Of a stretch of 64,000 bases of DNA, positions 1 through 18,561 are shown in pieces. The position numbers and the translations under genes were made by a program. The notes beneath the pieces are model-generated. The model searched no databases and had not been told where the DNA came from. It was given only the letters and a program-made list of their open reading frames with translations. Each line of letters starts with the position of its first letter. Position 1 is the first letter of the stretch. Origin of the DNA: Escherichia phage BEU42; sequence record OM632669.1; one strand, written 5' to 3'.

Positions 1-2526
1 ATGCAAGTAGCTGACTCTACTGAACTGACCACATCAGCAACGTTGGGTGCTCAAGATGCTATGGCCTTCGGTATTTCTGAAGACCCAGCATTCTTCCAAA
101 TACTCAGTGCTAACCTCTATTCTAATCAGAAACTGGCAATGGTACGTGAGACATTGTGCAATAGCTGGGATGCTCATATTGAGGGGGATAAAACAGATAT
201 TCCTATCCATGTAACCATTGATAAAGATGGTTTCCTTATCTTCCGTGACTATGGTTCTGGTATTCCTAAAGATAAGATTCAAGAGGTCTATGGGGTATAT
301 GGTGCATCTACCAAGAAAGCTAATACTGCTTCCACTGGTGGCTTTGGCTTAGGATGTAAATCTCCTATGGCCTATACAGACAGTTTTACAGTCACATCTA
401 TGTGTGACGGAACCAAGACTGTCTATCACATTGCTAAATCTTCTGTTGAGACTAACGGTAAACCAGGGATTATTCCTATCGTTAGCGTACCTACTGAAGA
501 ATCAGGGCTTGAAGTTAAAATTCAGCTTCAGTCAGAAGATATTTTAGAAATTGATTCATATATTCGAGCCATTGTATTACATGGTGAGATTAAATGTATT
601 TACTGCAATCAGTATACAGGACCAAATACAGTAGAGTTATTGCCTGTACTGGGTATGTCTTTTGAACCAGGTAGCTATAACCTAGACCATAACACATGGC
701 ATAAATATTACATGGGCAGTCATTCAATATTTATCCGTTATGGTAATGTTATGTACCCTGCTTTGGATACTCCTGCTACACATGAAGCATTAAAACTGGT
801 TAAACAGTTTATGCAGGTTATTAACTGTAGTCGTATCGTTGTTCAGGCTGCCCCATCATCACTAGCTGTAGCACCTAGCCGTGAAACACTGTCATCTCAA
901 AAAATGACCGAAGACGGTATCGTAAATTTGGCTGTAGCTTTAGTAGATAATATGGAAGCAGATATTAAAGCTCGTCTTCCAAATGCTATTGAATATATTG
1001 GGAAGGCTATTAAAGAATATAGTCCTCACCGTTTTGAAGTAAATAGTTATTTGCCTTACACCAATTTAGTGCCTGATGTTATTGTCAGTCGTTATATGTC
1101 CTCTACTTTATTCAGTAAGCAATATGCCCATCTGTGTAAGAAATGGGGAAATATGGAAATTGACCGTCAACTTGAACATCCTGCACTGGCTCATTTCTCT
1201 GGTTCTCAAAAAGCCCATCTCCGTAAGCATTTAAAGAGGGCTAAGAATTTACGTAATTACAGGGAATTAACTAAAGTATTTACTGATATGGCTATTAAGC
1301 CAATGTTCAAAACCTTTGCTAAATTGGGGATTACTAAAGGTATTTCCCTATTTCATTATCAATACGGTGTTGAACTGTGGCGTAATAATATTGTTAATAG
1401 TGTCCGTAGAATACACTCATTAAACTTCATGACTTATAGTTCTAAGAAGTGCCGTGTATTTGTTACCCCACGTATTACCAATATTGAAGATAGTCTGGCT
1501 GGGTATCCAGAGTTTGATAATCTTTCTACTGAGACACTGGTAAAATATAACTCAATCATTGTCAAAGTTGGAACCAAGAAAGGTGAAGCAGAAGCTATGA
1601 CTAATCTGCTCACTAAAGCAGGATACGAAGTCATTAATATGGCTGAATATCATGAGTGGGATTGTATAGCTCGTAGACGTAAAGAGGAACAAGAGGCTAA
1701 ATTAGCCATTTCCAAATTACAAGCTAAGAAGACTACTAATAAGAAAAAGGTTAGTCCTAATCGTCTTATTAGTATGAATATCCTTGAAATACCAAAAGAG
1801 CATCGTAGCTATTCGAGTGAAGTATGTGGTTCTCACTACGCTTCTCGTTCTCATGACCGAATGGTTGATGTAGATACTCCCCAGTATTACATCATGCAGG
1901 AAGATATTAATAACTACACAGGAAGACTTGGTGTTCTTTCTATGTGGCAATTAACCCCTGCTACCATTAAAGCTGTGACTGTTGTTTGTCGTAATAAAAT
2001 TGAACGTAATAAAGCTATTAAGCGAGGTGCTGTTCATTTGGATGAATGGACTGCTCCGTATATTGCTTCAGTTCTTACATCCAAACAATTCATTAAGTAT
2101 GTCACTAAAGAACGTCAGAAAACGTTAAGTGATATTGGTATTTACTCCAAACACCTCAGATTACTGAGAGAACTGGATATTACATATGCCCCATTGAAAG
2201 GTCTGCGTTATGACCCAGAACTGGAGAATGCTTATCTCTTCTTACAAAGTAGTAGCTACCCTAAGCTACGTGCATTGTTAGGGAAGGGTCTGATTACTGA
2301 AGAAGAGTATTACTTCCTCAGTGATGTTGATGTGCATTGCAAGACTTTCAGTAAGTACTCGGAACTTCGTAGGATACCGAAGATGTTCCTTGATATTGAT
2401 GCTGGGGGTTATATGTTGGCTGCATGTACTGTAGACACATTGCTTCGTGAAATCGAACAATTCCCTGAATCAATCCCTGCAATCAAACTGCTTGTAAAAG
2501 CTGCTCTTAAACGGAATACAGACTGA
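1..2526 (+). CDS. GHKL (HATPase_c) ATPase-domain protein, rIIA-like; may be 5'-truncated at window edge
   Basis: 841-aa ORF starting at nt 1; motifs RDYGSGIP and TGGFGLGCKS resemble GHKL ATP-binding boxes; rIIA-like call is by domain type and size only. Confidence 0.45.
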   Translation: MQVADSTELTTSATLGAQDAMAFGISEDPAFFQILSANLYSNQKLAMVRETLCNSWDAHIEGDKTDIPIHVTIDKDGFLIFRDYGSGIPKDKIQEVYGVYGASTKKANTASTGGFGLGCKSPMAYTDSFTVTSMCDGTKTVYHIAKSSVETNGKPGIIPIVSVPTEESGLEVKIQLQSEDILEIDSYIRAIVLHGEIKCIYCNQYTGPNTVELLPVLGMSFEPGSYNLDHNTWHKYYMGSHSIFIRYGNVMYPALDTPATHEALKLVKQFMQVINCSRIVVQAAPSSLAVAPSRETLSSQKMTEDGIVNLAVALVDNMEADIKARLPNAIEYIGKAIKEYSPHRFEVNSYLPYTNLVPDVIVSRYMSSTLFSKQYAHLCKKWGNMEIDRQLEHPALAHFSGSQKAHLRKHLKRAKNLRNYRELTKVFTDMAIKPMFKTFAKLGITKGISLFHYQYGVELWRNNIVNSVRRIHSLNFMTYSSKKCRVFVTPRITNIEDSLAGYPEFDNLSTETLVKYNSIIVKVGTKKGEAEAMTNLLTKAGYEVINMAEYHEWDCIARRRKEEQEAKLAISKLQAKKTTNKKKVSPNRLISMNILEIPKEHRSYSSEVCGSHYASRSHDRMVDVDTPQYYIMQEDINNYTGRLGVLSMWQLTPATIKAVTVVCRNKIERNKAIKRGAVHLDEWTAPYIASVLTSKQFIKYVTKERQKTLSDIGIYSKHLRLLRELDITYAPLKGLRYDPELENAYLFLQSSSYPKLRALLGKGLITEEEYYFLSDVDVHCKTFSKYSELRRIPKMFLDIDAGGYMLAACTVDTLLREIEQFPESIPAIKLLVKAALKRNTD

Positions 2527-2534
2527 AAATTAAA

Positions 2535-3374
2535 ATGCCTGTTCTTAAAGTGATGTTCCATAAAGACACCAACGTAGCTACTGTACTGGATGCCAGTGGT
2601 AGCCTTAGTGATGGTTCCGTTGAGGTGGGTACTTTCCATCATCCTGATGAAACCTATCCTGATAGTGTAACTATCTATCATGGTGTACGTGACCTGCTGT
2701 ATAAACGCAGTGCTAAAGACCCATCTCAAACTGCTTCTTACCCAAATAACATTATCAATATGCAAGTTATCAGTATTGATATGAAGGCAACTCCTCGCCT
2801 GATTTTGGGTACTGCATTACCTCGTGTAATCTCTACTATTGAAGGCAAAGATGTAACCTGGCATGTAGATGTTGCTGGTGGTAAAGCACCATTGACTTAC
2901 AAGTGGCAGTTTAAAGCTAATACTGTAGGTGCTGCTTTCGCTGATATTGATTCCGGAGAGAATCCTACAGCTAAAACTGCAACTCTTATTAACCATGCAG
3001 TAACTGCTGAATCTGCTGGTACTTATAAAGTCATCGTTACTGATGCTAACGGTACTACTATCGAGAGTTCTTCTCTGCTGGTTGTAGGAGTTCAGGAACC
3101 ACCTGAAGTAGCTTCTATTGTTGCTTATCCAAGTCCACTGGCTCTATCAGTAGCTGATGATATTACTGATGGTAAAACAGTTAAATTTTCTTCCCTGCCT
3201 GCTGGCTCTTTGATTGGTACTCTGTCCATTAAGACCCAGCCTGACAGTGGTAAAGCTACTGCTGAGATTAGTGGTAATGTACTGACAGTTAAACCTGTAG
3301 CCGCAGGTGACACTACTGTAGTGGTCACCAACGGAACCAAGGAAGTAACTGTTACGGTTAATGTTACAGAATAA
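2535..3374 (+). CDS. Ig-like (Big_2-type) domain protein, possible capsid decoration/surface protein
   Basis: 279-aa ORF with ATG; beta-rich T/V/S repeats ending TVVVTNGTKEVTVTVNVTE typical of bacterial Ig-like domains; no hydrophobic segments. Confidence 0.45.
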   Translation: MPVLKVMFHKDTNVATVLDASGSLSDGSVEVGTFHHPDETYPDSVTIYHGVRDLLYKRSAKDPSQTASYPNNIINMQVISIDMKATPRLILGTALPRVISTIEGKDVTWHVDVAGGKAPLTYKWQFKANTVGAAFADIDSGENPTAKTATLINHAVTAESAGTYKVIVTDANGTTIESSSLLVVGVQEPPEVASIVAYPSPLALSVADDITDGKTVKFSSLPAGSLIGTLSIKTQPDSGKATAEISGNVLTVKPVAAGDTTVVVTNGTKEVTVTVNVTE

Positions 3375-3395
3375 TGTGATTGTTTTTATGAATGT

Positions 3396-3418
3396 AGCCC
3401 TCCTTGTGGGGGCTTTTT
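3396..3418 (+). terminator. rho-independent terminator candidate
   Basis: GC hairpin agccc...gggct followed by TTTTT just downstream of the stop at 3374. Confidence 0.45.
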
Positions 3419-3443
3419 AGTATCTATAGGAGAGTAAATAATT

Positions 3444-3758
3444 ATGGCTAATAAGAACCGTCTTCGTGTATGGCATATCCCTCAAGTACCCGGCAAAGCC
3501 TTCTATGTTGAAGTAGATTCAGTAGAAGAAGGTGTACGTATCATTGATATACTAGCCAACTATGACCTATTCCAGTATGAGAACAATATCAAAGGTGATT
3601 ACTGCAATGTCTCTGGTTTACAGATGTATGATGAACATATCACTGATGATGAAATGGAAGAGATGGGTCTGACTGACCGTTGGGTAGACTGGTACTATGA
3701 AGATGACCAGAGCTTTTTTGATAACCCGAAAGAGTATTTGAATAATCTCAAGAAGTAA
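3444..3758 (+). CDS. hypothetical small acidic protein
   Basis: 104-aa ORF, ATG preceded by GGAGAG; D/E-rich C-terminal half. Confidence 0.5.
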   Translation: MANKNRLRVWHIPQVPGKAFYVEVDSVEEGVRIIDILANYDLFQYENNIKGDYCNVSGLQMYDEHITDDEMEEMGLTDRWVDWYYEDDQSFFDNPKEYLNNLKK

Positions 3759-3798
3759 TTTCTTGGGGTTAATGACCCTTATTAATTCCTTATCCTTT

Positions 3799-3821
3799 GC
3801 CCTCCTATGGAGGGCTTTTTT
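3799..3821 (+). terminator. rho-independent terminator
   Basis: 7-bp stem gccctcc/ggagggc, 3-nt loop, then TTTTTT. Confidence 0.6.
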
Positions 3822-3832
3822 ACGGAGTACAA

Positions 3833-4039
3833 ATGTTTAAGTTTTTAGACCTTATCTGGGCAGTCATTTTGCTGGTTGCTACAGGCTTTGTATATGGCTT
3901 CTTGCTCCCATCAATGATGTCTGCTTTAGACAGCATCATTGTTGTTATGGGCTTGATAGTCTGTATTGTGTGGCCTCTTATCGTAGGCCGTATCGTTTAT
4001 CTTACAGTTAAGAAAAGGATGAGAAGAAAACATGTATAA
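3833..4039 (+). CDS. small membrane protein (2 predicted TM helices)
   Basis: ORF track gives 3797 (TTG); ATG at 3833 has GGAG 5 nt upstream; product MFKFLDLIWAVILLVATGFVYGFLLP... is hydrophobic; stop overlaps start of next gene. Confidence 0.45.
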   Translation: MFKFLDLIWAVILLVATGFVYGFLLPSMMSALDSIIVVMGLIVCIVWPLIVGRIVYLTVKKRMRRKHV

Positions 4040-4868
4040 GTACATTGCAGTAGCAATTGCAGGGCTAATCATTGCTCTAAGTTTAACGAGCTGCTATGAC
4101 CGAGTTGAACCAGGTAATGTAGGTATTATCGTTAACCGTCTCGGTGAAGATAAAGGCGTGGAAAATGAGGTTAAAGGTGTAGGCCGTTACTGGCTCACTT
4201 GGAATGAAGAACTTTATACATTCCCAACCTTTAAGCAGATGAAGACCTATGATGGTCTGTTCTACTTCCAACTGTCTGATGGTACTCAGATAGGCCACCA
4301 GATGGCTATCAGCTATAAAGTGAACCCTACTAAGGTAACTAATATCTTCCAGACGTATCGTAAGGGAGTTAATGAAATTACCGAGCAGGATTTACGCCAA
4401 CGTATTGCTGATGTACTTAACAGACAGGGTAACCTGATTAACACTGATACATTTATTGATGGTGGTAAATCTAAGCTACTAGATAGTGTCACTGACACAA
4501 TCCGTAAAGAGATGGAACCAGTGGGGATTGATATTATTGCTATCTCCTGGATTGGTGCTCCTGAATACCCTGATAACGTTAAACGTGCCATTAATGCCAA
4601 AGTAGAAGCTACTCAGAAAACTCTGCAACGTGAGCAAGAGATTCAACAACGTGTAGCTGAAGCTAATATGGAACGTGAACAAGCTAAGGGTGTAGCTGAT
4701 GCTATTCTGATTAAAGCTAAAGCAGAGGCTGATGCTATTCGTTTACGTGGTGAAGCACTCACCGAGAATCCAAATGTAATGCAACTGGAAGCTATTAATA
4801 AGTGGAATGGTACATTACCTACCACAATGATTCCTGGGGCTACTACACCTTTCGTTAATGTGAAATAA
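4032..4868 (+). CDS. SPFH/band-7 (stomatin/prohibitin-like) lipoprotein
   Basis: 278-aa ORF; N-terminal signal with lipobox-like LTSC; SPFH-like core followed by charged coiled-coil segment (EQEIQQRVAEANMEREQAKG...). Confidence 0.55.
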   Translation: MYKYIAVAIAGLIIALSLTSCYDRVEPGNVGIIVNRLGEDKGVENEVKGVGRYWLTWNEELYTFPTFKQMKTYDGLFYFQLSDGTQIGHQMAISYKVNPTKVTNIFQTYRKGVNEITEQDLRQRIADVLNRQGNLINTDTFIDGGKSKLLDSVTDTIRKEMEPVGIDIIAISWIGAPEYPDNVKRAINAKVEATQKTLQREQEIQQRVAEANMEREQAKGVADAILIKAKAEADAIRLRGEALTENPNVMQLEAINKWNGTLPTTMIPGATTPFVNVK

Positions 4869-4874
4869 CTAAGC

Positions 4875-4905
4875 AAACCCACCATTACGGTGGGTTTATT
4901 TTTTG
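4875..4905 (+). terminator. rho-independent terminator
   Basis: 9-bp stem aaacccacc/ggtgggttt then TTTATTTTTT, 7 nt after stop at 4868. Confidence 0.65.
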
Positions 4906-4930
4906 AAGTTATCTAACACTGGGTATTCCT

Positions 4931-5155
4931 ATGAAAGTAAATGTTTTACGTCGTAAGAAAGTTCCTTTCTTTCAAATCAATTGTGGTTCATGTTTTCAAC
5001 ACGATGATGACTACTATATGAAGTGTAGTTATCAATCTAAAGAACACTTCTATGGTGTGAATTTACAAACAGGGCATCTGTTCACATTTGATAATAATGA
5101 CTTTGTTTATCCTGTGACTTTAGAAGCATGTATTCCTGACCCACTTAATAAATAG
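4931..5155 (+). CDS. hypothetical protein
   Basis: 74-aa ORF with ATG; contains CGSC motif; no recognisable domain. Confidence 0.35.
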   Translation: MKVNVLRRKKVPFFQINCGSCFQHDDDYYMKCSYQSKEHFYGVNLQTGHLFTFDNNDFVYPVTLEACIPDPLNK

Positions 5156-5156
5156 T

Positions 5157-5513
5157 ATGGCTCAAGAAAAGAATCGTCGTCAGACACTTATCGAACGTAT
5201 TCAGGCCAGAATCAAATTACAGGACTTAGGCTATACCGTTAATGGTCAGCCTAGCCTCTGTCACATCTGGACTGGTTCACATTCAGGTAATGGACGCGGT
5301 GGGCAATATGGCAGGATTTCCGTGAATGGAGTTACCTCTGCAACTCACATTATTGCCTATACCCATTATCATGGTTATATCCCCAATAAGATGCAAGTAG
5401 ACCATCTCTGTAATAATCGTCTGTGCTGTAACCCTGAACATCTTGAATTGGTTACTCACCAAGAGAACCAGAGAAGAAGGGCTAAGCGTTCTAAATCTAA
5501 AGGAAATAAATAA
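5157..5513 (+). CDS. HNH endonuclease (free-standing homing endonuclease-like)
   Basis: 118-aa ORF; HNH signature VDHLCNNRLCCNPEHLELVTHQEN. Confidence 0.7.
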   Translation: MAQEKNRRQTLIERIQARIKLQDLGYTVNGQPSLCHIWTGSHSGNGRGGQYGRISVNGVTSATHIIAYTHYHGYIPNKMQVDHLCNNRLCCNPEHLELVTHQENQRRRAKRSKSKGNK

Positions 5514-5684
5514 ATGATTAAAAAACTTATTTGTAAACTTATTGCAGCAATCTTAATTAGTATTATTGGTATTGCATGGGTAATTTCTACTCCAGATAAC
5601 GTTATGCAACAAATTTATTATGCTGTATATACATCAACCTCTTTTGTTTGGGTTTATGTAATGTACCGTATTTGTAGCGACTAA
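5514..5684 (+). CDS. small hydrophobic protein (56 aa, about 2 TM), absent from ORF track
   Basis: ATG immediately after HNH stop (taaATG); translates MIKKLICKLIAAILISIIGIAWVISTPDNVMQQIYYAVYTSTSFVWVYVMYRICSD. Confidence 0.35.
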   Translation: MIKKLICKLIAAILISIIGIAWVISTPDNVMQQIYYAVYTSTSFVWVYVMYRICSD

Positions 5685-5713
5685 TACTTAATATAGCTTA
5701 ACTGGAGAGTAAA

Positions 5714-6772
5714 ATGGCTAGTATTGATTCTATTGCCGTATGTAATCCACGGCAGGTACGTAAATTTGTTGAACACTGTATCCGTTCAGGATTGGTTCCA
5801 TTTATCACTTCATCTCCTGGTATGGGTAAATCTGCAATTGTTCATCAGATTGCAGAAGACTTTGGCCTGAAACTGATTGACCATCGTCTGTCTACTTCAG
5901 CACCAGAAGACCTGTCAGGTCTGCCTCGTTTTAAAGAAAATGGTCGTGCTGAATTTGCTCCATTTGACGAGCTATTCCCACTGGAAGGGGATACTGTACC
6001 TGAAGGATTTAATGGCTGGCTTCTCTTTCTCGATGAGTTTAACTCTGCTCGTAAAGAGATTCAGGCTGCTGCTTATAAATTGGTACTCGACCGTATGACT
6101 GGTCAGAAGAAGCTACATCCTTATGTAGCTATCGTATGTGCTGGTAACAAAGCAACTGACCGTGCCATTACTAATAACCTGTCTACAGCTATGCAATCAC
6201 GTCTTATTCATCTGGAAATGGAGACTGATTTTGATGTCTTTATGGAAGATGTAGCTATCCCTAACAAATGGGATGAGCGTGTAATTGCATTCCTGAATGC
6301 TAACCCAAATAAACTGAATGATTTTGAACCAGACCATCAAGAGAAGACTTTCTGTTGTTCTCGTACATGGGAGTTCGTTAACAAGATTGTTTCCATTCTC
6401 CCACCGGGACCGATTGATAGTGAAATGACTCTGCTATTAGCAGGCACTATCACCTCTGGTGTAGCAACATCATTCGTCCAGTTTACTCAGGTCTATAGCA
6501 ACATGGTGTCTTTGAATGAGATTTTGGATAATCCTAAGAAAGCTCGTATGCCTGAAGACAATAACCTGTTGTGGGCTGTAGTCACTTCACTGATTAACAA
6601 TACTGACGAAGATAATCATTCGAAAATCTTTGATTACGTTGAACGTATGCCATTTACGTTCAAGGTTTTGTACTACCGTTCCGTAGGTAGTCTGGTTCCA
6701 GCTTTGGTTAAATTACCGAACTGGCGTGTTGCTGCAATCACATTATCTAAATACGTTCATGGTTCCAATTAA
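5714..6772 (+). CDS. AAA+ ATPase, MoxR-like
   Basis: Walker A SSPGMGKSA, Walker B LLFLDEFNSA; 352 aa; followed by VWA protein as in MoxR-VWA pairs. Confidence 0.7.
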   Translation: MASIDSIAVCNPRQVRKFVEHCIRSGLVPFITSSPGMGKSAIVHQIAEDFGLKLIDHRLSTSAPEDLSGLPRFKENGRAEFAPFDELFPLEGDTVPEGFNGWLLFLDEFNSARKEIQAAAYKLVLDRMTGQKKLHPYVAIVCAGNKATDRAITNNLSTAMQSRLIHLEMETDFDVFMEDVAIPNKWDERVIAFLNANPNKLNDFEPDHQEKTFCCSRTWEFVNKIVSILPPGPIDSEMTLLLAGTITSGVATSFVQFTQVYSNMVSLNEILDNPKKARMPEDNNLLWAVVTSLINNTDEDNHSKIFDYVERMPFTFKVLYYRSVGSLVPALVKLPNWRVAAITLSKYVHGSN

Positions 6773-6938
6773 CAAGAAAGGAGTTACAGACCTCCTGTAT
6801 GTTGCTGGCTTTAACGGTGAAAAAATTACCGTATATGCCCCAAGTCTGGCTGCTGCTAAACAAAAGGCAGTTGAATACTTTCGTCCAAAGAAACGTGTAG
6901 CCCATACCATTTGGGTTCATCTCGCAGAGGAAAACTGA
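6762..6938 (+). CDS. hypothetical small protein (start uncertain)
   Basis: ORF track 6726..6938; in-frame ATG at 6762 (MVPINKKG...) fills gap between AAA and VWA genes. Confidence 0.25.
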   Translation, partial: VPINKKGVTDLLYVAGFNGEKITVYAPSLAAAKQKAVEYFRPKKRVAHTIWVHLAEEN

Positions 6939-6939
6939 T

Positions 6940-8082
6940 ATGTCCATGACAGATGCTCAATTAACCCGTGAATATGACAGATGTCAGGCTAAAGCCTTTA
7001 TGGGCAAAACTGCTGCATTCTTTGGTTCACTGTTATGTTCTCTGAAGTTCCGTTGGGTAAAAGATGGCTGTGATACAGCACAAACCGATGGTGAGCATCT
7101 CGAATGGAATCCTGATTGGTTTGAGAGTCTATTACCTGAATCTCGTGTAACAGTACTCATGCATGAACTATGGCATGTCGGCTTACTGCATTCTGTTCGT
7201 ATGGGTTCTCGTGACCCAGAAGTATGGAATTATGCCTGTGATATTTATATCAACAATCAGCTTATTCAGGATGGCTACAGCTTTATAGGAATCGAAAATT
7301 GCTGGAAAGACTCTAAGTATGCTGGTTGGGCTGAAGAACAAATCTATGATGACCTCATGAGCAAACAGATACGTCCTCCTAAAGCATCAGGTGCTTTTGG
7401 GGCTGGCTCAGGTGGTGACATGAAACCTTCCACTTCGAAGGCTAGTCAGGTAAATATTGTCAATAATGTAGTAAGAGCCATGCACCAACAGAAACTATCT
7501 GGTGGTTCTTTGCCTGGGGTATTACCTGGAAAAATGGAAGAAGTTATTACTCAATTCCTGAAACCAGTAGTACCGTGGCAGGTCTTACTTGAACGCTTCT
7601 TCAATGACCTGCAAGAAACTTACTACTCATGGCAACGGCCTAATCGTAGATACCCTGATATGTACCTACCATCTCCTATGGATGATGACGGTAGACTGGA
7701 ACATCTGGCTTATTTCCTCGATACATCTGGCTCCATTAAACCTAAAGATGCTTTACGCTTTAGCTCTGAAGTGGCCTATGTAAAAGAGAAATACCAGCCT
7801 CAGAAGATGACTCTAGTTCAGTTCACTACAGAGATTGTAGATGAACAAGTCATTGAAGATGGTGATAAGTTTACTGATGTCACTATCAAAGGACGGGGTG
7901 GTACTAGTCTGGTTCCTGTACGTGAGTGGATTATTAAGCATAAGCCTACTGCTGCCATTATCTTTACTGACTTAGAAGTCAGACCGATGGAGCCATTGCC
8001 ATTTGACATTCCTGTCATATGGGTAGTTATTCGTAACCCTGGTGCACAAGTTCCATTTGGGAAAGTTATTAACATTACATGA
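6940..8082 (+). CDS. VWA-domain protein with N-terminal HExxH metallopeptidase-like motif (partner of MoxR ATPase)
   Basis: 380 aa; MHELWHVGLLH motif; MIDAS-like DTSGS motif (YFLDTSGSIKP). Confidence 0.6.
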   Translation: MSMTDAQLTREYDRCQAKAFMGKTAAFFGSLLCSLKFRWVKDGCDTAQTDGEHLEWNPDWFESLLPESRVTVLMHELWHVGLLHSVRMGSRDPEVWNYACDIYINNQLIQDGYSFIGIENCWKDSKYAGWAEEQIYDDLMSKQIRPPKASGAFGAGSGGDMKPSTSKASQVNIVNNVVRAMHQQKLSGGSLPGVLPGKMEEVITQFLKPVVPWQVLLERFFNDLQETYYSWQRPNRRYPDMYLPSPMDDDGRLEHLAYFLDTSGSIKPKDALRFSSEVAYVKEKYQPQKMTLVQFTTEIVDEQVIEDGDKFTDVTIKGRGGTSLVPVREWIIKHKPTAAIIFTDLEVRPMEPLPFDIPVIWVVIRNPGAQVPFGKVINIT

Positions 8083-8088
8083 GGTTTT

Positions 8089-8595
8089 ATGGTTGTTAAT
8101 GGAAAACTATTGTTAGGTGCTATACCCATTAAGGGCATGGTTAACAGTAAACTCAGTTCAGGTGAGACTACATTTGGACTGGGAGAAGCTGGTTATGACA
8201 TCCGTATTAAACAGGATGTTACCTTCTACCGATTTCTTGGTTTGATTCCCTGCATCAAGATTAAGGATGAAGGAAAGACCAAGTGGAAGTTTGGCACTTT
8301 CACATTAGCTTCTGCAATGGAACGTTTCAATGTACCTGCTGGCCTAGTGGGTATTGTCCATGACAAATCTACATGGGCAAGGCGTACATTATCTGTATTT
8401 AATACCGTTATTGAACCAGGATGGTCAGGCTATCTGACTTTAGAACTGGTTTATCACGGTCGTAAAAAACTTCATATCCCTGCTGGTTCAGGTATTGCTC
8501 AGGTCATCTTCCATGAGACAGTAGAGAATACTACCTACAATGGACGATACCAGAACCAGCCTAATCAACCTGTAGCTGCTAAGTCAGCTCGTTAA
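8089..8595 (+). CDS. dCTP deaminase / dUTPase-superfamily protein
   Basis: 168 aa; GYDIRI and beta-rich pattern typical of dCTP deaminase. Confidence 0.5.
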   Translation: MVVNGKLLLGAIPIKGMVNSKLSSGETTFGLGEAGYDIRIKQDVTFYRFLGLIPCIKIKDEGKTKWKFGTFTLASAMERFNVPAGLVGIVHDKSTWARRTLSVFNTVIEPGWSGYLTLELVYHGRKKLHIPAGSGIAQVIFHETVENTTYNGRYQNQPNQPVAAKSAR

Positions 8596-8608
8596 TTAAG
8601 GAAATATC

Positions 8609-8809
8609 ATGTCTATCTTTACTACTAAGGTTAATGGTCAGAAAGTTACTGTTGTTGCTCGTAACGTAGCTTACGTTACTGAAAACAGTGAAGGCCGTGG
8701 TGTAATTACTTTTACTAACGGTGATTCCATTGATACCCAGGTAGGTTATGACTCTATCCGTCGTAACGTAGCTAAAGCACTTGATGGTGCTAAAGACATC
8801 GCAGAGTAA
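8609..8809 (+). CDS. hypothetical protein
   Basis: 66-aa ORF, ATG with AAGGAAA upstream; followed by two hairpins. Confidence 0.45.
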   Translation: MSIFTTKVNGQKVTVVARNVAYVTENSEGRGVITFTNGDSIDTQVGYDSIRRNVAKALDGAKDIAE

Positions 8810-8884
8810 GGTGTTTACAGTAATGGGGCTATATAGTAGCCCCATTTATGGAAATTCCTTTCTCCATTGCTTAGTCCCAACTAT

Positions 8885-8907
8885 GCCCACTTTATGTGGG
8901 CTTTTTT
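8885..8907 (+). terminator. rho-independent terminator
   Basis: stem gcccac/gtgggc then TTTTTT; preceded by a second hairpin at about 8823-8845. Confidence 0.6.
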
Positions 8908-8922
8908 AATTAGAGACTATGT

Positions 8923-9165
8923 ATGAGCAAACTAGGTATACACGTTTACATAGATGAAGCCGAGAAGATATACCCCTATACATTATTTAGTTCCAGTGAT
9001 TTACTTCAGATGAAGGTAAACTCCATCATCGTAAACTACTGGTATAACGATAAGAATTGGGATTACTGGGCTGCACGACAGAAGAGTAAGAACAAGAAAG
9101 ATATATTCAAAAGCAAATCAACTCCACATATGTTTCCTTGGTATCACAGAAACCGGAGATATTGA
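8923..9165 (+). CDS. hypothetical protein
   Basis: 80-aa ORF; weak RBS; stop overlaps next start (TGATG). Confidence 0.3.
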   Translation: MSKLGIHVYIDEAEKIYPYTLFSSSDLLQMKVNSIIVNYWYNDKNWDYWAARQKSKNKKDIFKSKSTPHMFPWYHRNRRY

Positions 9166-9626
9166 TGACAAGAATACCATTTTTAAAACCTAGAAAACGA
9201 ACACCAAAGCTGTATCAAAAGACCTCAGAAGACGGTTTAGCCTTGAACCAGAAAGCTATTAAGGCCGTTAGTACACTGGTTCAAGGTAAACAGGATGCTG
9301 TTGCTTTACGTCTTGTTGTTGAGCAAATCTTAGTTGCTCTGACACTGGCTCAAGTAGCTAAACAAGAAGGTAAACAAGAAACCTGTAAAACAGCATTAGG
9401 TGCTTTGTACTGGTTGTATAAAGACCTTGCTGACAACTTTGAAATGTCTATGGATAAGTGGCAGGGCATTTCTTGTGTACTTGCTCTTAGAGAAGGACAG
9501 GAATTACTGTCTACTCTACCAAAAGCAGAATTTAAACTAGCCTACACTGGAGCACATAAGATTGTTCTTGGTTCCAGTAAGGACATCTTTAACCACCTCA
9601 AGCTATTCAAGGCTTTCTATGATTAA
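9165..9626 (+). CDS. hypothetical protein
   Basis: ORF track start 9138; ATG at 9165 has GGAG 7 nt upstream; 153 aa. Confidence 0.4.
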   Translation: MTRIPFLKPRKRTPKLYQKTSEDGLALNQKAIKAVSTLVQGKQDAVALRLVVEQILVALTLAQVAKQEGKQETCKTALGALYWLYKDLADNFEMSMDKWQGISCVLALREGQELLSTLPKAEFKLAYTGAHKIVLGSSKDIFNHLKLFKAFYD

Positions 9627-10560
9627 TGCAAAAATCCTCGCTGATAGTATTACTCTTTCTGGTGACCGTCTGGTAACAATGGAGCTGGTTTATCCGCGTT
9701 TTATTCATTCAGAATTTATGACTCACCGAGCACTTAATCGTAATGCTTCCAGTAGTCGTGCTATTCCTACCCAACGCCTTATTGAGCAAGTTCGTAATGA
9801 ACCAGTAATGCCAGTACATTGGGGTAAGAACCAGAAAGGAATGCAGGCAAGTGAAGAACTCACTCCTATGGAGATTAAGGATGCTGAGTTCATTTGGGAA
9901 AATGCTGCCTCTGCTGCTGCTGTGTATGCTGAACAACTTCGTCGTGGACAAGTACATAAGCAGATTGTTAATCGTATTCTGGAACCATTCACGCATATCC
10001 GTGTAGTAGTGACAGCTACTCAATGGAATAACTTCTTTGGTTTACGTATCCATCCCGATGCTCAACCAGAGATTTGTGAATTGGCTACTAAGATGAAGGA
10101 ACAGTATGACCAATCAAAACCCCGTACCTTGTTGGCTGGGGAATGGCATTTGCCGTACATTACTAATAGTGATTACCTCGATGCTTACGATTATTGCAAA
10201 CATCAACGAATTACTCGTGATGAACCAAGTAGTGATGAAATTAATTGCCTGTTAGTAAAAATCTCTGCTGCTCGTTGTGCCCGTGCTTCTTATAACAACT
10301 TTAAAGGCACTCCTTCTACTATCGAAGAAGACCTGCGTTTGTTCTCTAAATTGGTTGAAAGTAAGCCTGTTCACGCAAGTCCTACTGAACATCAAGCAAC
10401 TCCTCAGCATGTAATGAGTAAAGGCTTAAATGAGCCTACTGACCCATCTACATGGGAAAATGGCATTAGCCACATGGACAGAAATTTACGTTTATACTCA
10501 GGTAATCTGTGTGGCTGGATTCAATTCCGTAAGCTGCTTGCAGATGAATGCATCCACTAA
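9619..10560 (+). CDS. thyX: flavin-dependent thymidylate synthase (ThyX-like)
   Basis: ORF track start 9562; ATG at 9619 overlaps previous stop (ATGATTAA); ThyX-like motif THRALNRNASSSR. Confidence 0.5.
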   Translation: MINAKILADSITLSGDRLVTMELVYPRFIHSEFMTHRALNRNASSSRAIPTQRLIEQVRNEPVMPVHWGKNQKGMQASEELTPMEIKDAEFIWENAASAAAVYAEQLRRGQVHKQIVNRILEPFTHIRVVVTATQWNNFFGLRIHPDAQPEICELATKMKEQYDQSKPRTLLAGEWHLPYITNSDYLDAYDYCKHQRITRDEPSSDEINCLLVKISAARCARASYNNFKGTPSTIEEDLRLFSKLVESKPVHASPTEHQATPQHVMSKGLNEPTDPSTWENGISHMDRNLRLYSGNLCGWIQFRKLLADECIH

Positions 10561-10605
10561 GTAGGTCTTTTGTGGGTGTAGACCACTCATAATAAACTCC
10601 GCTAT

Positions 10606-10633
10606 TTGCCTCCTACATGGAGGCAATTTTTTT
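10606..10633 (+). terminator. rho-independent terminator
   Basis: 8-bp stem ttgcctcc/ggaggcaa then TTTTTTT. Confidence 0.65.
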
Positions 10634-10657
10634 GATTCCATGTACATAGGAGGCCAT

Positions 10658-10891
10658 ATGGCTAAACCACGTAAATTTCGTATTAAGGGTAAGCCTGTAA
10701 TGGGTAGTGCTGCTGGTCAGTCACATGAGAAAGGAGACATTGTTTATGAATGCCTTCAGTATGATTACGGCGTTGCTCATGATGACACTCGTGCTACTGG
10801 TGTCCCACATACCTCAGTAACTCTTGAGGAAGATGGTAGCTACCCATTCTTCACTGTTCCTACTCATAACCTGGAAGAAATTCATGATTGA
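10658..10891 (+). CDS. hypothetical protein
   Basis: ATG at 10658 with AGGAGG 5 nt upstream (ORF track start 10640 lacks RBS); 77 aa. Confidence 0.4.
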   Translation: MAKPRKFRIKGKPVMGSAAGQSHEKGDIVYECLQYDYGVAHDDTRATGVPHTSVTLEEDGSYPFFTVPTHNLEEIHD

Positions 10892-11210
10892 CCCAAATAT
10901 CATCCATGCCAAAACAGGCGAATCCCATAAGCTGTCTGAATATTCCAAAGTAGAAGATATTGCAGTTTGTCCTGCAAATATTGCTTCTCTTTGTATCTGT
11001 ATTGCAGAGCTATCTAAAGAACGCCAACTATGGCTATCTCCTAATAAAACAATGGTTCAGGCAGGTCTGGCAGAAGTACAACGTATGCTGGATGAATGGT
11101 CTGAAGACCAGATGTTCATTGATGGCAATGCAGAAGCAATAACCGATGACATGGCCTCTGATATGGCTGTGTTTGTATTACAAGCAATGGCTGAAAAGCG
11201 TAGTAGTTAA
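10884..11210 (+). CDS. hypothetical protein
   Basis: ATG at 10884 overlapping upstream stop (ATGATTGA); 108 aa. Confidence 0.4.
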   Translation: MIDPNIIHAKTGESHKLSEYSKVEDIAVCPANIASLCICIAELSKERQLWLSPNKTMVQAGLAEVQRMLDEWSEDQMFIDGNAEAITDDMASDMAVFVLQAMAEKRSS

Positions 11211-11234
11211 TTAATAATTTACTGGAGAAAATTC

Positions 11235-13325
11235 GTGAAACGAAATTATCTCGCCATTATTGCCCTGTCAGTAGACAGTCGTAACCTCACCTTATGGCAA
11301 CCAGATGGTTCTACTATGGTCATCCCCCAAGGGGATGCCCGTGTACCACGTATTGTTGCTGAAGCAAAAGAAAAGAATCTTACCCCAGGTAAGATTATCG
11401 AAGTGGATGTCACTATCGAAGCTCAGATTCGTCAGGAGTTTCTGGACGCTGAACGTGATACAGGTGGCTTTGTTAAATTCTTCCGTATTACTAAGAAGAG
11501 GCTACAAGAGTTCTTCTTAGGGGAAGAGGAAGAACAAGTCCCTTATGTATCACCTGTAGAGTTAGGTGCTAAACCCACTGCTTTCAATGCTTTTATTGCT
11601 AATGCTGTAGGCAAAACTCTTGCTGTACAACATGCATCATTAAAAGCACCTGAACCAGAAATGACAGTTACTCATGAGCGTTTTTACGGTAACTATGCTG
11701 TATGGATTACAGATGTAGACCCACGGAATCATCGTATTGAGGTTATTCATGTTATCCGTGAAATCTCAGGAAGAACCAGTGAATATGTCAATAACCTGCT
11801 GGCTCAACCAACCCCATTCAAAGTATTTGATTGGCTCACAGAGACGCAGGCTAAAGAGTTTGTAAGACGTCTGAATAACACTCAGGGTGTTATCTCTGTC
11901 TATAACAAACTGGAAGACGGTATTCCTGCTAAGGTTGCTGTAAAGGCCACAAAGCCAACCAATAAGGAAAAGCTGGAAGCTGCATCAACTAAGCTGAAAG
12001 CTATGGGTGCTGTCGCTACTGATGCTTATGAGTTTCATACTGACTTGAATGAGAATGAAGAGACTATTGTAGCTGTAGTGAATGATAAGGTGGTTCCTGA
12101 TGTTCAGAACCTACACCGCCACATCCGTCAATCTGCAAACCTGAAAGACTATAAAGGCTTTACTAAGTTCCTTGAACGTCTGTCTACTGTAATTGATAAA
12201 CGTCGTCACTCTGTTGAAGACCTGATGAAGTTTATGGAAAAAGGTGACCTGCCAATTGCAGATGATGGCTCCATTGTTATCTTCAAACGTCTGGAAAGCA
12301 AAGACAATCCTGAACATCTCAAAGACGTAATGGATGATGTATTTGTTGATTGCCATTCTAGGAAGATTGAGCAATGCGTTGGTATGCGTGTAATGGTTAA
12401 AGAAAACCTTGTAGACCAGAACCGTCGTAAAGACTGTTCTCATGGTTTGCACGTAGCTTCTCTGCAATACATTCGTAATTTCTCAGGCAACGTAACCATT
12501 ATTGGTAAAGTTGCTCCAGAGGATGTATTTGCAGTACCAGAATACGATGTTACTAAGATGCGTGTATCTGCTTATCACATCATTACCAAGCTACCTGATG
12601 CTATTCGTGACCATGTTAATAATGGCAATCCAATCTCCACCATTGAGGGTGGTACGGAAATCCTGAACATGGTTCTCAGTGGTAATCACCCTGAACCTTC
12701 CCGTCAGGTACTGGTTGGTGGTCATTATGGAACCAATCTGACTTATTCAGAACTCACCCGTAATTATCTGGATGATGAGGAAGACATCGTTATTCCAGAT
12801 GAACCAGTAATTAAGAAAACTGCCTTGAATATGGAAGAGAGCTTTACGGCAACTAATCCTAAAGCTGAACCAGTGAAGGCAACGGATGTTAAACCTATTA
12901 AGAAGACTAAGATGGAAATTCTTAAAGACCTTTGGAACCAGTTCCTGAAAGCAGAGACTTCTAATGAAGCTATTACACTGGCTGATGAAATCATTGCTGC
13001 TAAGGGCAAATGTAAGAAGTCATGGGCTTCTTTAGGCTTCAGTGGTGACATGGTTCAGAAACTGATTGATGCTCGTGCTAATAAACCTAAGCCAGAAAAA
13101 GTAGTCAAACAGGATAAAACTGTTGCACCTAAGAAAACTACAATCACTCGTAGTCGGAATGCTGATGTTATTCGTAGCTATCTGAATGACAAAGGTATGT
13201 CTGATTACTGTAAAGCTCATGCCATTCACGATGTGAAACGTGCTGCTAAGAAATCTTATGCTGCACTGGGTCTGACTCCTGAAGAATGCAGCCAAATTGA
13301 TAAACTGAAGCATCATTTGAAGTAA
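11235..13325 (+). CDS. conserved hypothetical protein (696 aa), GTG start
   Basis: long ORF beginning GTG with GGAG 8 nt upstream; no motif recognised. Confidence 0.5.
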   Translation: MKRNYLAIIALSVDSRNLTLWQPDGSTMVIPQGDARVPRIVAEAKEKNLTPGKIIEVDVTIEAQIRQEFLDAERDTGGFVKFFRITKKRLQEFFLGEEEEQVPYVSPVELGAKPTAFNAFIANAVGKTLAVQHASLKAPEPEMTVTHERFYGNYAVWITDVDPRNHRIEVIHVIREISGRTSEYVNNLLAQPTPFKVFDWLTETQAKEFVRRLNNTQGVISVYNKLEDGIPAKVAVKATKPTNKEKLEAASTKLKAMGAVATDAYEFHTDLNENEETIVAVVNDKVVPDVQNLHRHIRQSANLKDYKGFTKFLERLSTVIDKRRHSVEDLMKFMEKGDLPIADDGSIVIFKRLESKDNPEHLKDVMDDVFVDCHSRKIEQCVGMRVMVKENLVDQNRRKDCSHGLHVASLQYIRNFSGNVTIIGKVAPEDVFAVPEYDVTKMRVSAYHIITKLPDAIRDHVNNGNPISTIEGGTEILNMVLSGNHPEPSRQVLVGGHYGTNLTYSELTRNYLDDEEDIVIPDEPVIKKTALNMEESFTATNPKAEPVKATDVKPIKKTKMEILKDLWNQFLKAETSNEAITLADEIIAAKGKCKKSWASLGFSGDMVQKLIDARANKPKPEKVVKQDKTVAPKKTTITRSRNADVIRSYLNDKGMSDYCKAHAIHDVKRAAKKSYAALGLTPEECSQIDKLKHHLK

Positions 13326-13392
13326 GTAGGTTAACTATTCAAGTAGCTCCGGTTGAAATATACTGGAGCTATCTTTGAAGAGGATACATACT

Positions 13393-13788
13393 ATGGCCAA
13401 AGTTTATCGTGCTAACCGTAAAGCCCATGATGACGATATTATTCGTATGAATGCAGTCGGTTTATCATTGGGAACCATTGCTAAAACACTGGGTGTTCAC
13501 CCCACTACAGTTACCTTACGATTACGCTCTCTTGGTATTGAACCAGCCGACACACGTCGAACATTTATGGAGAACGTACTAGCACCATTACCTACTCACG
13601 TAGCTGATTGGTTATCAGAACAAGTAGGACCAAAGTATGAGATTCGACAATACGTCCGAGACTTATTACTAGAAGCCTACAATAATCGTCATAATCATAA
13701 GGAAACTGCTCATGAACGATTCCTCAAAAGATACGTTGGTACAAACTCAGAACTGGTTTCTGAAGGCAGTACCCAGTCCAACGAGTAA
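13393..13788 (+). CDS. helix-turn-helix DNA-binding protein
   Basis: ATG at 13393 with AAGAGGA upstream (track start 13375 is TTG); HTH-like LSLGTIAKTLGVHPTTVTLRL. Confidence 0.4.
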   Translation: MAKVYRANRKAHDDDIIRMNAVGLSLGTIAKTLGVHPTTVTLRLRSLGIEPADTRRTFMENVLAPLPTHVADWLSEQVGPKYEIRQYVRDLLLEAYNNRHNHKETAHERFLKRYVGTNSELVSEGSTQSNE

Positions 13789-14173
13789 AAACATTAGTAC
13801 TCAGATTGGTTGTCATCTGGAAGAAGTAGTTGAGATGCTGGAAGAATTGGCTCCAAATTCTGAAGAAGCATACGATACACTTCATAATGCCATTGTAGCT
13901 TTAACTGAATTGTCAGAATTAATGAAATCCTCTGATAAAGAAGTTTATGCACCTAACAGCAATCGCTTAGCTATTCTGGATGCACTGGCAGACCAGATTG
14001 TTACAGCAACTGGCATCGGTACTTTCTTGGGTATGAACGTACCTGGAGCACTCACTGAAGTGAACCGTTCTAATTATTCAAAATTTGAAGATGGTGAGCC
14101 TGTTTTCAATGAGAATAAGAAAGTAATGAAAGGTAAGGATTACACTCCGCCTGATTTAACCCCATTCATTTAA
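13712..14173 (+). CDS. MazG-like nucleotide pyrophosphohydrolase (tentative)
   Basis: 153 aa; EE-rich helix HLEEVVEMLEEL resembling MazG EExxE motif; overlaps upstream gene by 77 nt. Confidence 0.35.
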   Translation: MNDSSKDTLVQTQNWFLKAVPSPTSKNISTQIGCHLEEVVEMLEELAPNSEEAYDTLHNAIVALTELSELMKSSDKEVYAPNSNRLAILDALADQIVTATGIGTFLGMNVPGALTEVNRSNYSKFEDGEPVFNENKKVMKGKDYTPPDLTPFI

Positions 14174-14177
14174 AAGA

Positions 14178-14201
14178 GCCGCCCATATAGGGCGGTTTTT
14201 G
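14178..14201 (+). terminator. rho-independent terminator
   Basis: stem gccgccc/gggcgg(t), loop atata, then TTTTT. Confidence 0.6.
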
Positions 14202-14215
14202 TATCTGGAGAACTC

Positions 14216-15535
14216 ATGTATAAAAGTACTACTAAGCTGCCACTAAATCCTGGTCAAGAGGCAGCGGCAGAAGGTTTCTTCGACTTTCTGCTCGACCCCA
14301 ATGCTTCTGAACTTCGTATTAGTGGACCTGGTGGTACAGGCAAGACATTTACAATGGCTCATATGATTGACGAGATTATGCCTCGTTATCATGAGACATG
14401 TAGTCTGATGGGAATCCCTGCTCTCTATAACGAAGTTATTATGACTGCTACTACTAATAAGGCAGCAGAAGTATTAGCCCGTGCAACAGGACGTCCTACG
14501 TCTACCTATCATTCCTTTCAAGGTCTGACAGTACGGAATAACCTGAAGACTGGGGAAGCAGACCTGATTCCATCTAAGTCCTTCAGTATCAAAAAGAATA
14601 AGGTCATTTTTATTGATGAAGCATCAATGATTGACCGTAAACTGAAGAAGTTCATTAACGAAGGTACTCACCAAAGTAAGATTGTTTACTTAGGTGATAA
14701 ATGCCAATTGTTACCTGTAAAGGAAACTTCTTCTCCTGTCTACAATGACAGTAGCATTAAAGAGTTTATGCTGACCCAGCAGATGCGTACTGATGTCCCT
14801 GAACTCCATGCACTGCATGAACAGCTTCGTGGAACCATTGAAGGTAAGCATGGATTCCTGCCTATTAAAGCAGTTCCAGGTATTATCGACTGGATTGAAG
14901 ATGGTGATGAAATGAGAAAAGAAGTCGAAGGTCATTTCATGACTAAGACTGACACTCGTATTGTTGCCTATACCAACCAACAGGTTGTTAACTATAACAC
15001 CTTCATTCGAGCTATGAATGGATTCCACGGGGAGTTCTGTATTGGTGAAGAGTTAGTAAGTAACTCTGCTATTCAGATTGGTGCTGGTGATCGCCTTAGT
15101 ATTGAACAGGAATGCCAGATTGTTGACCAGGATTCTGCTACTCGTAAGATTCTGATTGATTCCTCTGGCATCGAATTAGAAGTACGTGATTGCACCCTGG
15201 ATACTGGTTATGGTGGTGTCTTTGAAGGTATCCCTATTCCGGTAGATATGGATTATTTCATTCGTTTGCAAAAGTACTATGCACACCAAAAGAACTGGGA
15301 ACGTCACTTCTATTTGAAAGAAACATTCCCTGAACTTCGAGCATTACATGCTTCTACTGTGCATAAGTCTCAAGGTTCTACCTACGACACCATCTTTATT
15401 GATGCTACTGATTTATCTACTTGCCGTCAGCCTGATGTAGTAGCACGTCTGCTTTATGTAGCAGTATCTCGTGCTCGTCATCGTGTTGTGTTCTATGGCT
15501 CTTTGGCAGAGAAATTTGGTGGTCTGGTTCGCTAA
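14216..15535 (+). CDS. SF1 DNA helicase, Dda/RecD-like
   Basis: Walker A GPGGTGKTF, Walker B VIFIDEASM, C-terminal TVHKSQGST and YVAVSRARHR motifs. Confidence 0.8.
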   Translation: MYKSTTKLPLNPGQEAAAEGFFDFLLDPNASELRISGPGGTGKTFTMAHMIDEIMPRYHETCSLMGIPALYNEVIMTATTNKAAEVLARATGRPTSTYHSFQGLTVRNNLKTGEADLIPSKSFSIKKNKVIFIDEASMIDRKLKKFINEGTHQSKIVYLGDKCQLLPVKETSSPVYNDSSIKEFMLTQQMRTDVPELHALHEQLRGTIEGKHGFLPIKAVPGIIDWIEDGDEMRKEVEGHFMTKTDTRIVAYTNQQVVNYNTFIRAMNGFHGEFCIGEELVSNSAIQIGAGDRLSIEQECQIVDQDSATRKILIDSSGIELEVRDCTLDTGYGGVFEGIPIPVDMDYFIRLQKYYAHQKNWERHFYLKETFPELRALHASTVHKSQGSTYDTIFIDATDLSTCRQPDVVARLLYVAVSRARHRVVFYGSLAEKFGGLVR

Positions 15536-15544
15536 GGAGAACTT

Positions 15545-16072
15545 ATGCAACTGGGTGAAAAACAAATCCGTGAAATGACTAATAGTAGTGAACTAGTTCA
15601 GGAATTATTCTTAGCCGAGTTACGTCGGCTAGATAAAGTGCTGGATAGTATCATTACACGTAATGGGGAAACATTCGCTGTATACAACTCAACAGGGTTT
15701 CTGTATTTAGGGGAGTTCTATTCGAGTTCCCGTTCATCACAACAACCCCCTTCTGGTCATCGTCTGGCTCTGGCTAATCACCTACTGGATGATATGCGGG
15801 AGTATCTGGAACAAGCAGGTAAACTTCTGCTAGAAGTCCATATGGTGAATCAGATGGTCTTTCGTCTGGTTCAGGGCTGTAAGACTTATCAAGACGTTCG
15901 TGATGCATTGCCAGAATGCCTCATTGCTATGGATAAACAGGGTCATCTGAAATCCTTACAGAGAACCAGAAAGGCAGCATTTACTCTGGATAATGATGCT
16001 ATGGCTCTCCGTCAGTATGAGAAAATCTTGCCGATTATCGAATACTATGCGGGAACCCATCTTATCTTTTGA
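15545..16072 (+). CDS. hypothetical protein
   Basis: 175-aa ORF with ATG and GGAG upstream. Confidence 0.45.
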   Translation: MQLGEKQIREMTNSSELVQELFLAELRRLDKVLDSIITRNGETFAVYNSTGFLYLGEFYSSSRSSQQPPSGHRLALANHLLDDMREYLEQAGKLLLEVHMVNQMVFRLVQGCKTYQDVRDALPECLIAMDKQGHLKSLQRTRKAAFTLDNDAMALRQYEKILPIIEYYAGTHLIF

Positions 16073-16079
16073 GGTCTGT

Positions 16080-18044: not shown

Positions 18045-18561
18045 ACAACGGTATAAGATTTCCGATGAAGGTTTCATCTTAAATCTTGCAAACAATCAAC
18101 CCCTAAAACCGACTCTCAATCCTAATGGATACCTTAAGGTTGGATTAGCTAATGGCGATGGTACACATCACCAAGAGCTACTTCATATTCTGGTAGCTAA
18201 ACACTTCATCCCTAATCCTTATGGCTATGAACAGGTAAACCATAAAGACGGTAATAAACTGCATTGTCATAAGGATAATCTGGAATGGTGCTCTGCTACT
18301 CAGAATGTTGAACATGCACTTAAAACAAAGCTACGTCCTGGTTACATGTCTGCTGACGATAAAGAGAAGTATCTCTTTGAGGTGCTGGCAGGTAAGCAAG
18401 TTAAAGACATTGCTTTTGAAATAGGTAGGCGTCCTGAAACTTTGCATAAGATGCTCAGAACTACTGCTGACCGACTTGGTGTTCGAAATGAGTGGGATGA
18501 TGTTATGAGGAGAAATAGAAAAGATGTTGCTTTACGACAGCTTGCCAAAATCAACTCATGA
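18016..18561 (+). CDS. HNH homing endonuclease inserted in the DNA polymerase gene
   Basis: ORF track 17947..18561; likely ATG at 18016; YKISDEGFILN start typical of homing endonucleases; HNH core VNHKDGNKLHCHKDNLEWCSATQNVEHA. Confidence 0.75.
   Translation: MTLLPVAFYEQRYKISDEGFILNLANNQPLKPTLNPNGYLKVGLANGDGTHHQELLHILVAKHFIPNPYGYEQVNHKDGNKLHCHKDNLEWCSATQNVEHALKTKLRPGYMSADDKEKYLFEVLAGKQVKDIAFEIGRRPETLHKMLRTTADRLGVRNEWDDVMRRNRKDVALRQLAKINS

Follow-up and report, generated by a model that had tools for sequence, protein, structure and literature searches.

The window, i.e. the entire stretch of 64,000 nucleotides analysed from Escherichia phage BEU42 (OM632669.1), was assigned to the genus Enquatrovirus (coliphage N4-like) by megablast, with 100% identity to the records of Escherichia phages BEU5, BEU13, BEU14, BEU44 and BEU51 and 98–99% identity to coliphage N4. 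An ATG-initiated open reading frame, which spans exactly positions 2535–3374 of the plus strand, encodes a product of 279 amino acids. It corresponds to N4 gp17 (YP_950495; N4 6759–7598), which is annotated in NC_008720 as 'Hoc-like head decoration' or '32 kD VP'. The locus displays the following features, the domain boundaries being approximate:

2535–3374, plus strand: gp17 CDS, 279 amino acids and stop; N4-type capsid decoration protein, '32 kDa virion protein'
2535–2798, plus strand: DI (about residues 1–88), conserved capsid anchor at the quasi-3-fold axes (role from PMC11768535)
2799–3086, plus strand: DII (about residues 89–184), I-set/Ig_3-like Ig domain on the P-domain of the major capsid protein (role from PMC11768535)
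3108–3371, plus strand: DIII (about residues 192–279), Ig-like domain that is flexible, exposed to the solvent and hardly in contact with the capsid
3396–3422, plus strand: terminator-like hairpin (3396–3414) and T-run (AGCCCTCCTTGTGGGGGCT + TTTTT), 22 nt past the gp17 stop codon
3444–3758, plus strand: gp18, superinfection-exclusion protein (P22 gp17-like; PF17420, E 2.4e-56; phrog_1510), native downstream neighbour of gp17

The entire product is matched by phrog_2973 'Hoc-like head decoration' (residues 1–279 against positions 1–310 of the 310-position profile, E 4.5e-95). A search of PDB sequences revealed identity of all 279 residues to chain 9e99_J, the N4 '32 kDa protein' gp17, and the same sequence is present in entries 9lbz and 9ld7. 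Chain 9d7z_J, an orthologue of 273 amino acids, was found with an E-value of 1e-89, and two chains named 'Decoration protein', 8zvi_a and 5lxk_A, which we take to be pb10 of phage T5, weakly match DII (E about 1e-3). At the level of the gene, DNA identity to N4 and the BEU phages amounts to 98.9–100%. All 11 nucleotide differences from N4 gp17 are synonymous and none is non-synonymous, a pattern that points to purifying selection. The profile match in combination with the purely synonymous divergence from N4 indicates that the reading frame is a real gene and did not arise by chance. Given this validated plus-strand product and the purely synonymous divergence, minus-strand reading frames of 59–118 amino acids lying over gp17 were dismissed as spurious. 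The protein has a calculated mass of 29.2 kDa and a pI of 5.2 and contains no cysteine. The preliminary description of this DNA had stated that the product lacks membrane segments, and this holds, the highest Kyte-Doolittle mean over 19 residues being 1.18.

Profile searches with the whole protein place Ig-like character in the middle of gp17. Residues 96–182 (approximately) match Ig_3 (PF13927) with 23.4 bits against a gathering score of 30 (E 2.9e-5) and I-set (PF07679) with 18.8 bits against 23.7 (E 0.0056). Scanned alone, DII reaches 24.9 bits for Ig_3 and 17.2 bits for I-set, both again under the gathering scores, and neither DI nor DIII matches any Pfam family at E≤10 when scanned in this way. 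Since the G7C orthologue attains 24.9 bits for I-set, DII appears to be a divergent I-set-like domain. By tblastn, it resembles Ig-domain structural and tail-fibre proteins of Salmonella and Klebsiella phages of about 155 kb (35–44% identity). Big_2 (PF02368, gathering score 22.8 bits) is matched neither by the whole protein at E≤1 nor by the three separate domains at E≤10; as positive controls, the homologues of Pokken and Kpn16-P2 scored 150.5 and 52.9 bits, respectively. The earlier designation 'Ig-like, Big_2-type' is thus borne out in its first half, albeit weakly by HMM and for the middle of the protein, and has to be abandoned in its second. An AlphaFold2 model calculated from the single sequence (pLDDT 32.9, pTM 0.19) was too poor for a fold search, and the Ig fold of gp17 therefore rests on identity to the solved chain together with the weak Ig_3 and I-set matches.

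The reading frame of rIIA ends at position 2526, 8 nt before the ATG of gp17, and this neighbourhood had initially been considered notable. The adjacency is literally present in the window, yet the junction is non-native and was encountered in none of the related records searched. Mapping of the window onto N4 by blastn gave the following arrangement:

1–2526, plus strand: displaced rIIA CDS (N4 gp33; phrog_2979, E 1.6e-262), equivalent to N4 15460–17985, with its limits precisely at the ATG and the stop codon; natively located between gp32 and rIIB
2526/2527, no strand: non-native junction, end of rIIA joined to N4 position 6751
2527–11235: equivalent to N4 6751–15459, gp17 to gp32
11235/11236, no strand: excision scar, gp32–rIIA spacer joined straight to rIIB
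From 11236: equivalent to N4 from 17986, rIIB onward

The junction reads rIIA-stop|AAATTAAA-ATG-gp17, so that gp17 is deprived of its native GAGG Shine-Dalgarno sequence, of the terminator of gp16 and of a conserved element that precedes it. At the scar, where the window has ...GAGAAAATTCG|TGAAACG... and N4 has ...TTCGATGCAAG... and ...GACTGATGAAACG..., the ATG of rIIB lost its A and now reads GTG. None of the phage records in the collection searched spans the rIIA–gp17 junction; the junction string is absent from IMG/VR, in which the native gp16–gp17 string was found once, in N4. Native order is retained in 15 other Enquatrovirus records, and BEU5 is a clean rotation beginning at rIIA. However, two records of the same batch, BEU51 and BEU44 (GenBank OM632672 and OM632670), both flagged UNVERIFIED_ORG, display the same cut-and-paste of rIIA. 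BEU51 consists of the rIIA CDS followed by N4 1–15459 and 17986–48208, whilst in BEU44 the reverse complement of the rIIA CDS comes first, and the contig behind it, which is devoid of rIIA, runs in reverse orientation. Gene order in this batch is therefore not to be trusted.

Because the breakpoints coincide exactly with the ATG and the stop codon of rIIA and sibling records carry the same cut-and-paste, comparison of the sequences argues with high, though not absolute, confidence for a record-processing artefact. In a step intended to let the record begin at rIIA, the sequence would not have been rotated; the rIIA CDS by itself would erroneously have been moved to the first position. The alternative is a genuine rearrangement, by which rIIA was transposed upstream of gp17 and gp17 came to be co-transcribed and translationally coupled with rIIA. 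The junction is, after all, physically present, and the source is a distinct variant, the in-frame deletion of 34 amino acids in gp53 relative to BEU5 looking biological. Nevertheless, a transposition would have had to take the first and the last base of the rIIA CDS as its limits, to deprive gp17 of its GAGG Shine-Dalgarno sequence and to alter the start codon of rIIB, and it is confronted with two sibling records bearing the same CDS pasted at the start, in one of them as the reverse complement, with the native order of the 15 other Enquatrovirus records and with the absence of the junction string from IMG/VR. A genuine rearrangement is accordingly regarded as very improbable. The adjacency appears to be an artefact, which affects sibling GenBank entries as well, and no biological reading of it is warranted.

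Further deviations from the reference genomes were observed elsewhere in the window. In gp53 (41503–44058, minus strand), an in-frame deletion of 34 amino acids with its junction near 42857 removes residues 401–434 of N4 gp53 relative to both N4 and BEU5, which is identical in other respects; outside the deletion, 842 of 851 residues are identical. The preserved reading frame suggests that the deletion is a true variant and not a mistake of assembly. At position 63754, 3709 bp of BEU5 and N4 are missing (N4 69891–70153 plus 1–3446), a segment that extends from the end of gp71 through gp72 and the genome termini and across gp1 to gp10 into part of gp11. A phage without gp1, gp2 and the early promoters should not be viable, and the gap, which falls on the physical ends of the genome, therefore probably arose during assembly or preparation of the record. 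The family-A DNA polymerase (N4 gp39; 15993–19354, plus strand) is distributed over two reading frames, 15993–18044 and 18524–19354, which are separated by an insertion of about 700 bp that is absent from N4 and present in BEU5. The insertion carries a reading frame for a homing endonuclease of 204 amino acids with HNH_3 and NUMOD4 domains (17947–18561). Rfam models detected no group I intron in the split polymerase at the gathering threshold, which leaves two readings, an intron that escaped recognition and a polymerase that is truly encoded in two parts. Four tRNA genes (Asn-GTT, Ser-TGA, Thr-TGT and Pro-TGG; 26418–27096, plus strand) are located at the end of the rightward arm. The counterpart of N4 gp25 (6940–8082, plus strand), which adjoins the AAA ATPase gp24, is named 'HNH endonuclease' in RefSeq and PHROGs. 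By Pfam it contains a DUF2201_N putative metallopeptidase domain (E 2.6e-86) and a VWA-like domain (E 1.4e-46), and the 'HNH' name looks like a mis-annotation.

In its native context, gp17 directly follows the RNAPII gene gp16, and rIIA is located 8.7 kb downstream. RNAPII genes followed by a terminator-like hairpin, the gp17 homologue and another hairpin are found in N4, G7C, the Erwinia phage Frozen, the Stenotrophomonas phage Pokken and the Klebsiella N4-like phage Kpn16-P2, which represent five genera, and the position after RNAPII has been described as 'usual for N4-like phages' (PMC6950046). The general observation that a head protein is encoded away from the structural module is correct: its gene belongs to the early/middle arm, which points rightward, and the late structural genes, which point leftward, are far removed. 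Downstream of gp17 the window keeps the N4 order from gp18 to gp25, and upstream rIIA stands in place of gp16. The hairpin behind gp17 has its N4 counterpart at 7620–7638, and the records of G7C and Pokken annotate a stem-loop or terminator after the gp17 homologue.

Owing to the rearrangement, the conserved element in front of native gp17 lies outside the window. In N4, the segment preceding gp17 (6680–6758) comprises a strong terminator hairpin with T-run, the motif TCATAAT-N3/4-TAGGCA and a GAGGA ribosome-binding site, and this arrangement of terminator, motif and Shine-Dalgarno sequence is common to N4, G7C and a Klebsiella N4-like phage. Judged by its sequence, the upstream element may be a private promoter or a regulatory site that sets timing. 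The motif TCATAAT-N3-TAGGCA has one exact copy in N4, before gp17, and elsewhere only chance-level matches with two mismatches; on account of this single copy, a recurring promoter class was rejected. Promoter-like sigma-70 matches around gp17 do not exceed chance expectation, and with Rfam neither a group I intron nor any other RNA family was detected near gp17 or in the split polymerase, the four tRNAs being the only hits. The literature searched contains no statement on the transcription class of gp17 (middle or late) or on transcript mapping. Natively, gp17 forms a one-gene unit between terminator-like hairpins immediately behind the RNAPII genes, and its putative expression from a conserved upstream element of its own would make it independent of the late operons.

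The place of the identical protein in the virion has been described in detail, based on a map of the N4 capsid at 2.45 Å (Viruses 2024, 17:19; PMC11768535). N4 gp17 is composed of three Ig-like β-sandwich domains, DI to DIII (PMC11768535; PDB 9E99). Each asymmetric unit of the T=9 head carries three copies, which are arranged flat about the quasi-2-fold axes and across the capsomer interfaces; every quasi-3-fold axis holds one DI, and DII rests on the P-domain of one major capsid protein subunit (PMC11768535). DIII, which was placed as a rigid-body fit of an AlphaFold3 model rather than built de novo, is flexible, has minimal capsid contact and was ascribed an 'uncertain, non-structural function' (PMC11768535). 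According to the account given in the same paper, gp17 had already been made the decoration protein in 2008 by a study combining cryo-EM and mass spectrometry. The copy number is 175 per capsid (PMC3715699), and the homologue of phage KP8 was found in virions by MALDI-TOF (PMC6950046). According to a review, gp17 leaves infectivity unaffected and contributes to stability, also when DNase I and EDTA are applied (PMC7602432); unpublished stability experiments with mutants lacking gp17 suggested a cementing role (PMC11768535).

It can be concluded that the product is almost certainly gp17 of an N4-type coliphage, a monomeric capsid decoration or 'cement' protein, with an adjacency to rIIA that stems from a faulty record start. 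About 175 copies would be bound to the outer surface of the mature T=9 head, with DI plugging the quasi-3-fold axes, DII sitting on the P-domain of the major capsid protein and DIII projecting into the solvent. The protein would be dispensable for infectivity and would stabilise heads against stress, a stabilising role that derives in part from mutant experiments unpublished as of PMC11768535. The preliminary description had thus been correct in proposing a capsid decoration protein encoded outside the structural block, as is evident from the N4 capsid structure, and the checks it suggested (virion proteomics, cryo-EM of a deletion mutant and a test for the Ig fold) are already published for gp17. 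For N4 and relatives, the protein has already been published along with its fold, its capsid position and the unusual location of its gene. The locus consequently holds little discovery value and yields mainly corrections, which concern the adjacency to rIIA, the names of homologues and the Big_2 label.

Alignment of gp17 with four homologues (G7C, Frozen, Pokken and Kpn16-P2) revealed that DI is the only part conserved in all of them, with the motif G(T/S)FxHPDxxYP(D/G)SxxI(Y/F)HGVR, which in the window is represented by HPD..YPDS..IYHGVR. In line with this, tblastn matches in Klebsiella, Stenotrophomonas and Xanthomonas phages are confined to residues 1–56 or 1–101. According to the alignment, I-set-like DII and DIII are common to N4, G7C and Frozen, and conservation of DIII is limited to Enquatrovirus, Gamaleyavirus and Erwinia phages. 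The homologue of Kpn16-P2 (171 amino acids; extracted locus 3501–4016) contains one true Big_2 domain (E 3.5e-14), and that of Pokken (348 amino acids; extracted locus 3501–4547) contains three (E 1.2e-44). Since these domains occur in Pokken and Kpn16-P2 and none is present in the window protein, the 'Big_2' label fits the cousins of gp17, not gp17 itself. The distribution of domains suggests a design in which a conserved anchor is combined with exchangeable cassettes.

Databases list homologues of gp17 as 'neck whiskers protein', 'fibritin (wac) protein', 'tail tube protein', 'structural protein' and 'hypothetical protein', names that conflict with the solved capsid location.

Two other functions have to be weighed against that of a cement. 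Together with the 'tail fiber' names of Ig-domain matches, the whisker, fibritin and tail tube names could be taken to indicate a neck whisker/fibritin (wac) or tail fibre protein. However, the model of PDB 9E99 places the identical protein on the capsid shell, and the matches to tail-fibre proteins cover only DII (residues 89–181, 35–44% identity). The probability of a whisker, fibritin or tail fibre identity is therefore practically nil; it is refuted by the capsid structure, and the names represent propagated mis-annotations. More has to be said for a surface-adhesion module similar to T4 Hoc, which would primarily tether virions to host surfaces or mucus glycans instead of acting as a cement. 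Such a role would agree with the solvent exposure, flexibility and minimal capsid contact of DIII and with its 'uncertain, non-structural function' (PMC11768535), and a review lists 'stability, host adhesion' for gp17 (PMC7602432). Moreover, the swapping of the outer Ig modules (I-set-like versus Big_2) under retention of DI is what would be expected of a module facing the environment. On the other hand, DI and DII lie flat and bridge the capsomers at every quasi-3-fold axis (PMC11768535), particle stability falls when gp17 is lost (PMC11768535, PMC7602432), and neither a reported ligand nor an adhesion assay was found in the literature searched. A primarily adhesive function is thus conceivable but unlikely, and the two roles are not mutually exclusive.

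A related and rather doubtful proposal is that the gp17 family represents a modular display scaffold, in which DI serves as the anchor for interchangeable, environment-facing Ig cassettes and DIII of N4 is adhesive rather than part of the cement. If true, DIII of N4 would be an adhesion module for host-surface or mucus glycans, and the gene would be an insulated one-gene cassette that, by means of its private TCATAAT-N3/4-TAGGCA element, is exchanged and timed independently of the late operons.

Comparison with known systems identifies gp17 of coliphage N4 (YP_950495; PDB 9E99, 9LBZ and 9LD7) as the closest relative of the decoration protein in the window. Both share 279 of 279 residues and the downstream neighbours gp18 (superinfection exclusion), gp19 and gp20. 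They differ by the 11 synonymous substitutions and by the upstream region, where the window has the displaced rIIA instead of gp16, terminator, conserved element and Shine-Dalgarno sequence. Another close relative is gp17 of the Gamaleyavirus G7C (PDB 9D7Z_J, 'Ig-like domain-containing protein', 273 amino acids, E 1e-89), which has the same three-domain layout and likewise follows RNAPII; phages of the G7C group display 64–73% identity to gp17. In contrast to the window protein, G7C gp17 possesses a shorter loop in DII, and its DII passes the I-set gathering score (24.9 versus 23.7 bits), below which the window protein remains. Pokken gp024 (Pokkenvirus) and, from Klebsiella N4-like phages, KP8 gp26/Kpn16-P2 gp33 share the N-terminal DI anchor and the locus after RNAPII. 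In Pokken and Kpn16-P2, however, true Big_2 modules replace the I-set-like DII and DIII of N4.

Outside of the N4-like phages, T5 pb10 displays weak similarity to DII in its Ig-like domain (E about 1e-3), and none beyond this single Ig domain. Like gp17, it decorates the head, is Ig-like and has been ascribed a stabilising function (PMC11768535), but it comprises two domains and binds to the hexamer centres (PMC7602432). T4 Hoc resembles gp17 as a non-essential, monomeric head decoration protein with multiple Ig domains, a likeness reflected in the PHROG name 'Hoc-like'; among the PDB sequence matches of gp17 at E≤0.01 there is no Hoc chain. Hoc is located at the hexamer centres, from which it extends as an outward fibre, and is bound to the capsid by a C-terminal domain (PMC11768535), whereas gp17 lies flat around the quasi-2-fold axes and is anchored by its N-terminal domain DI on the quasi-3-fold axes.
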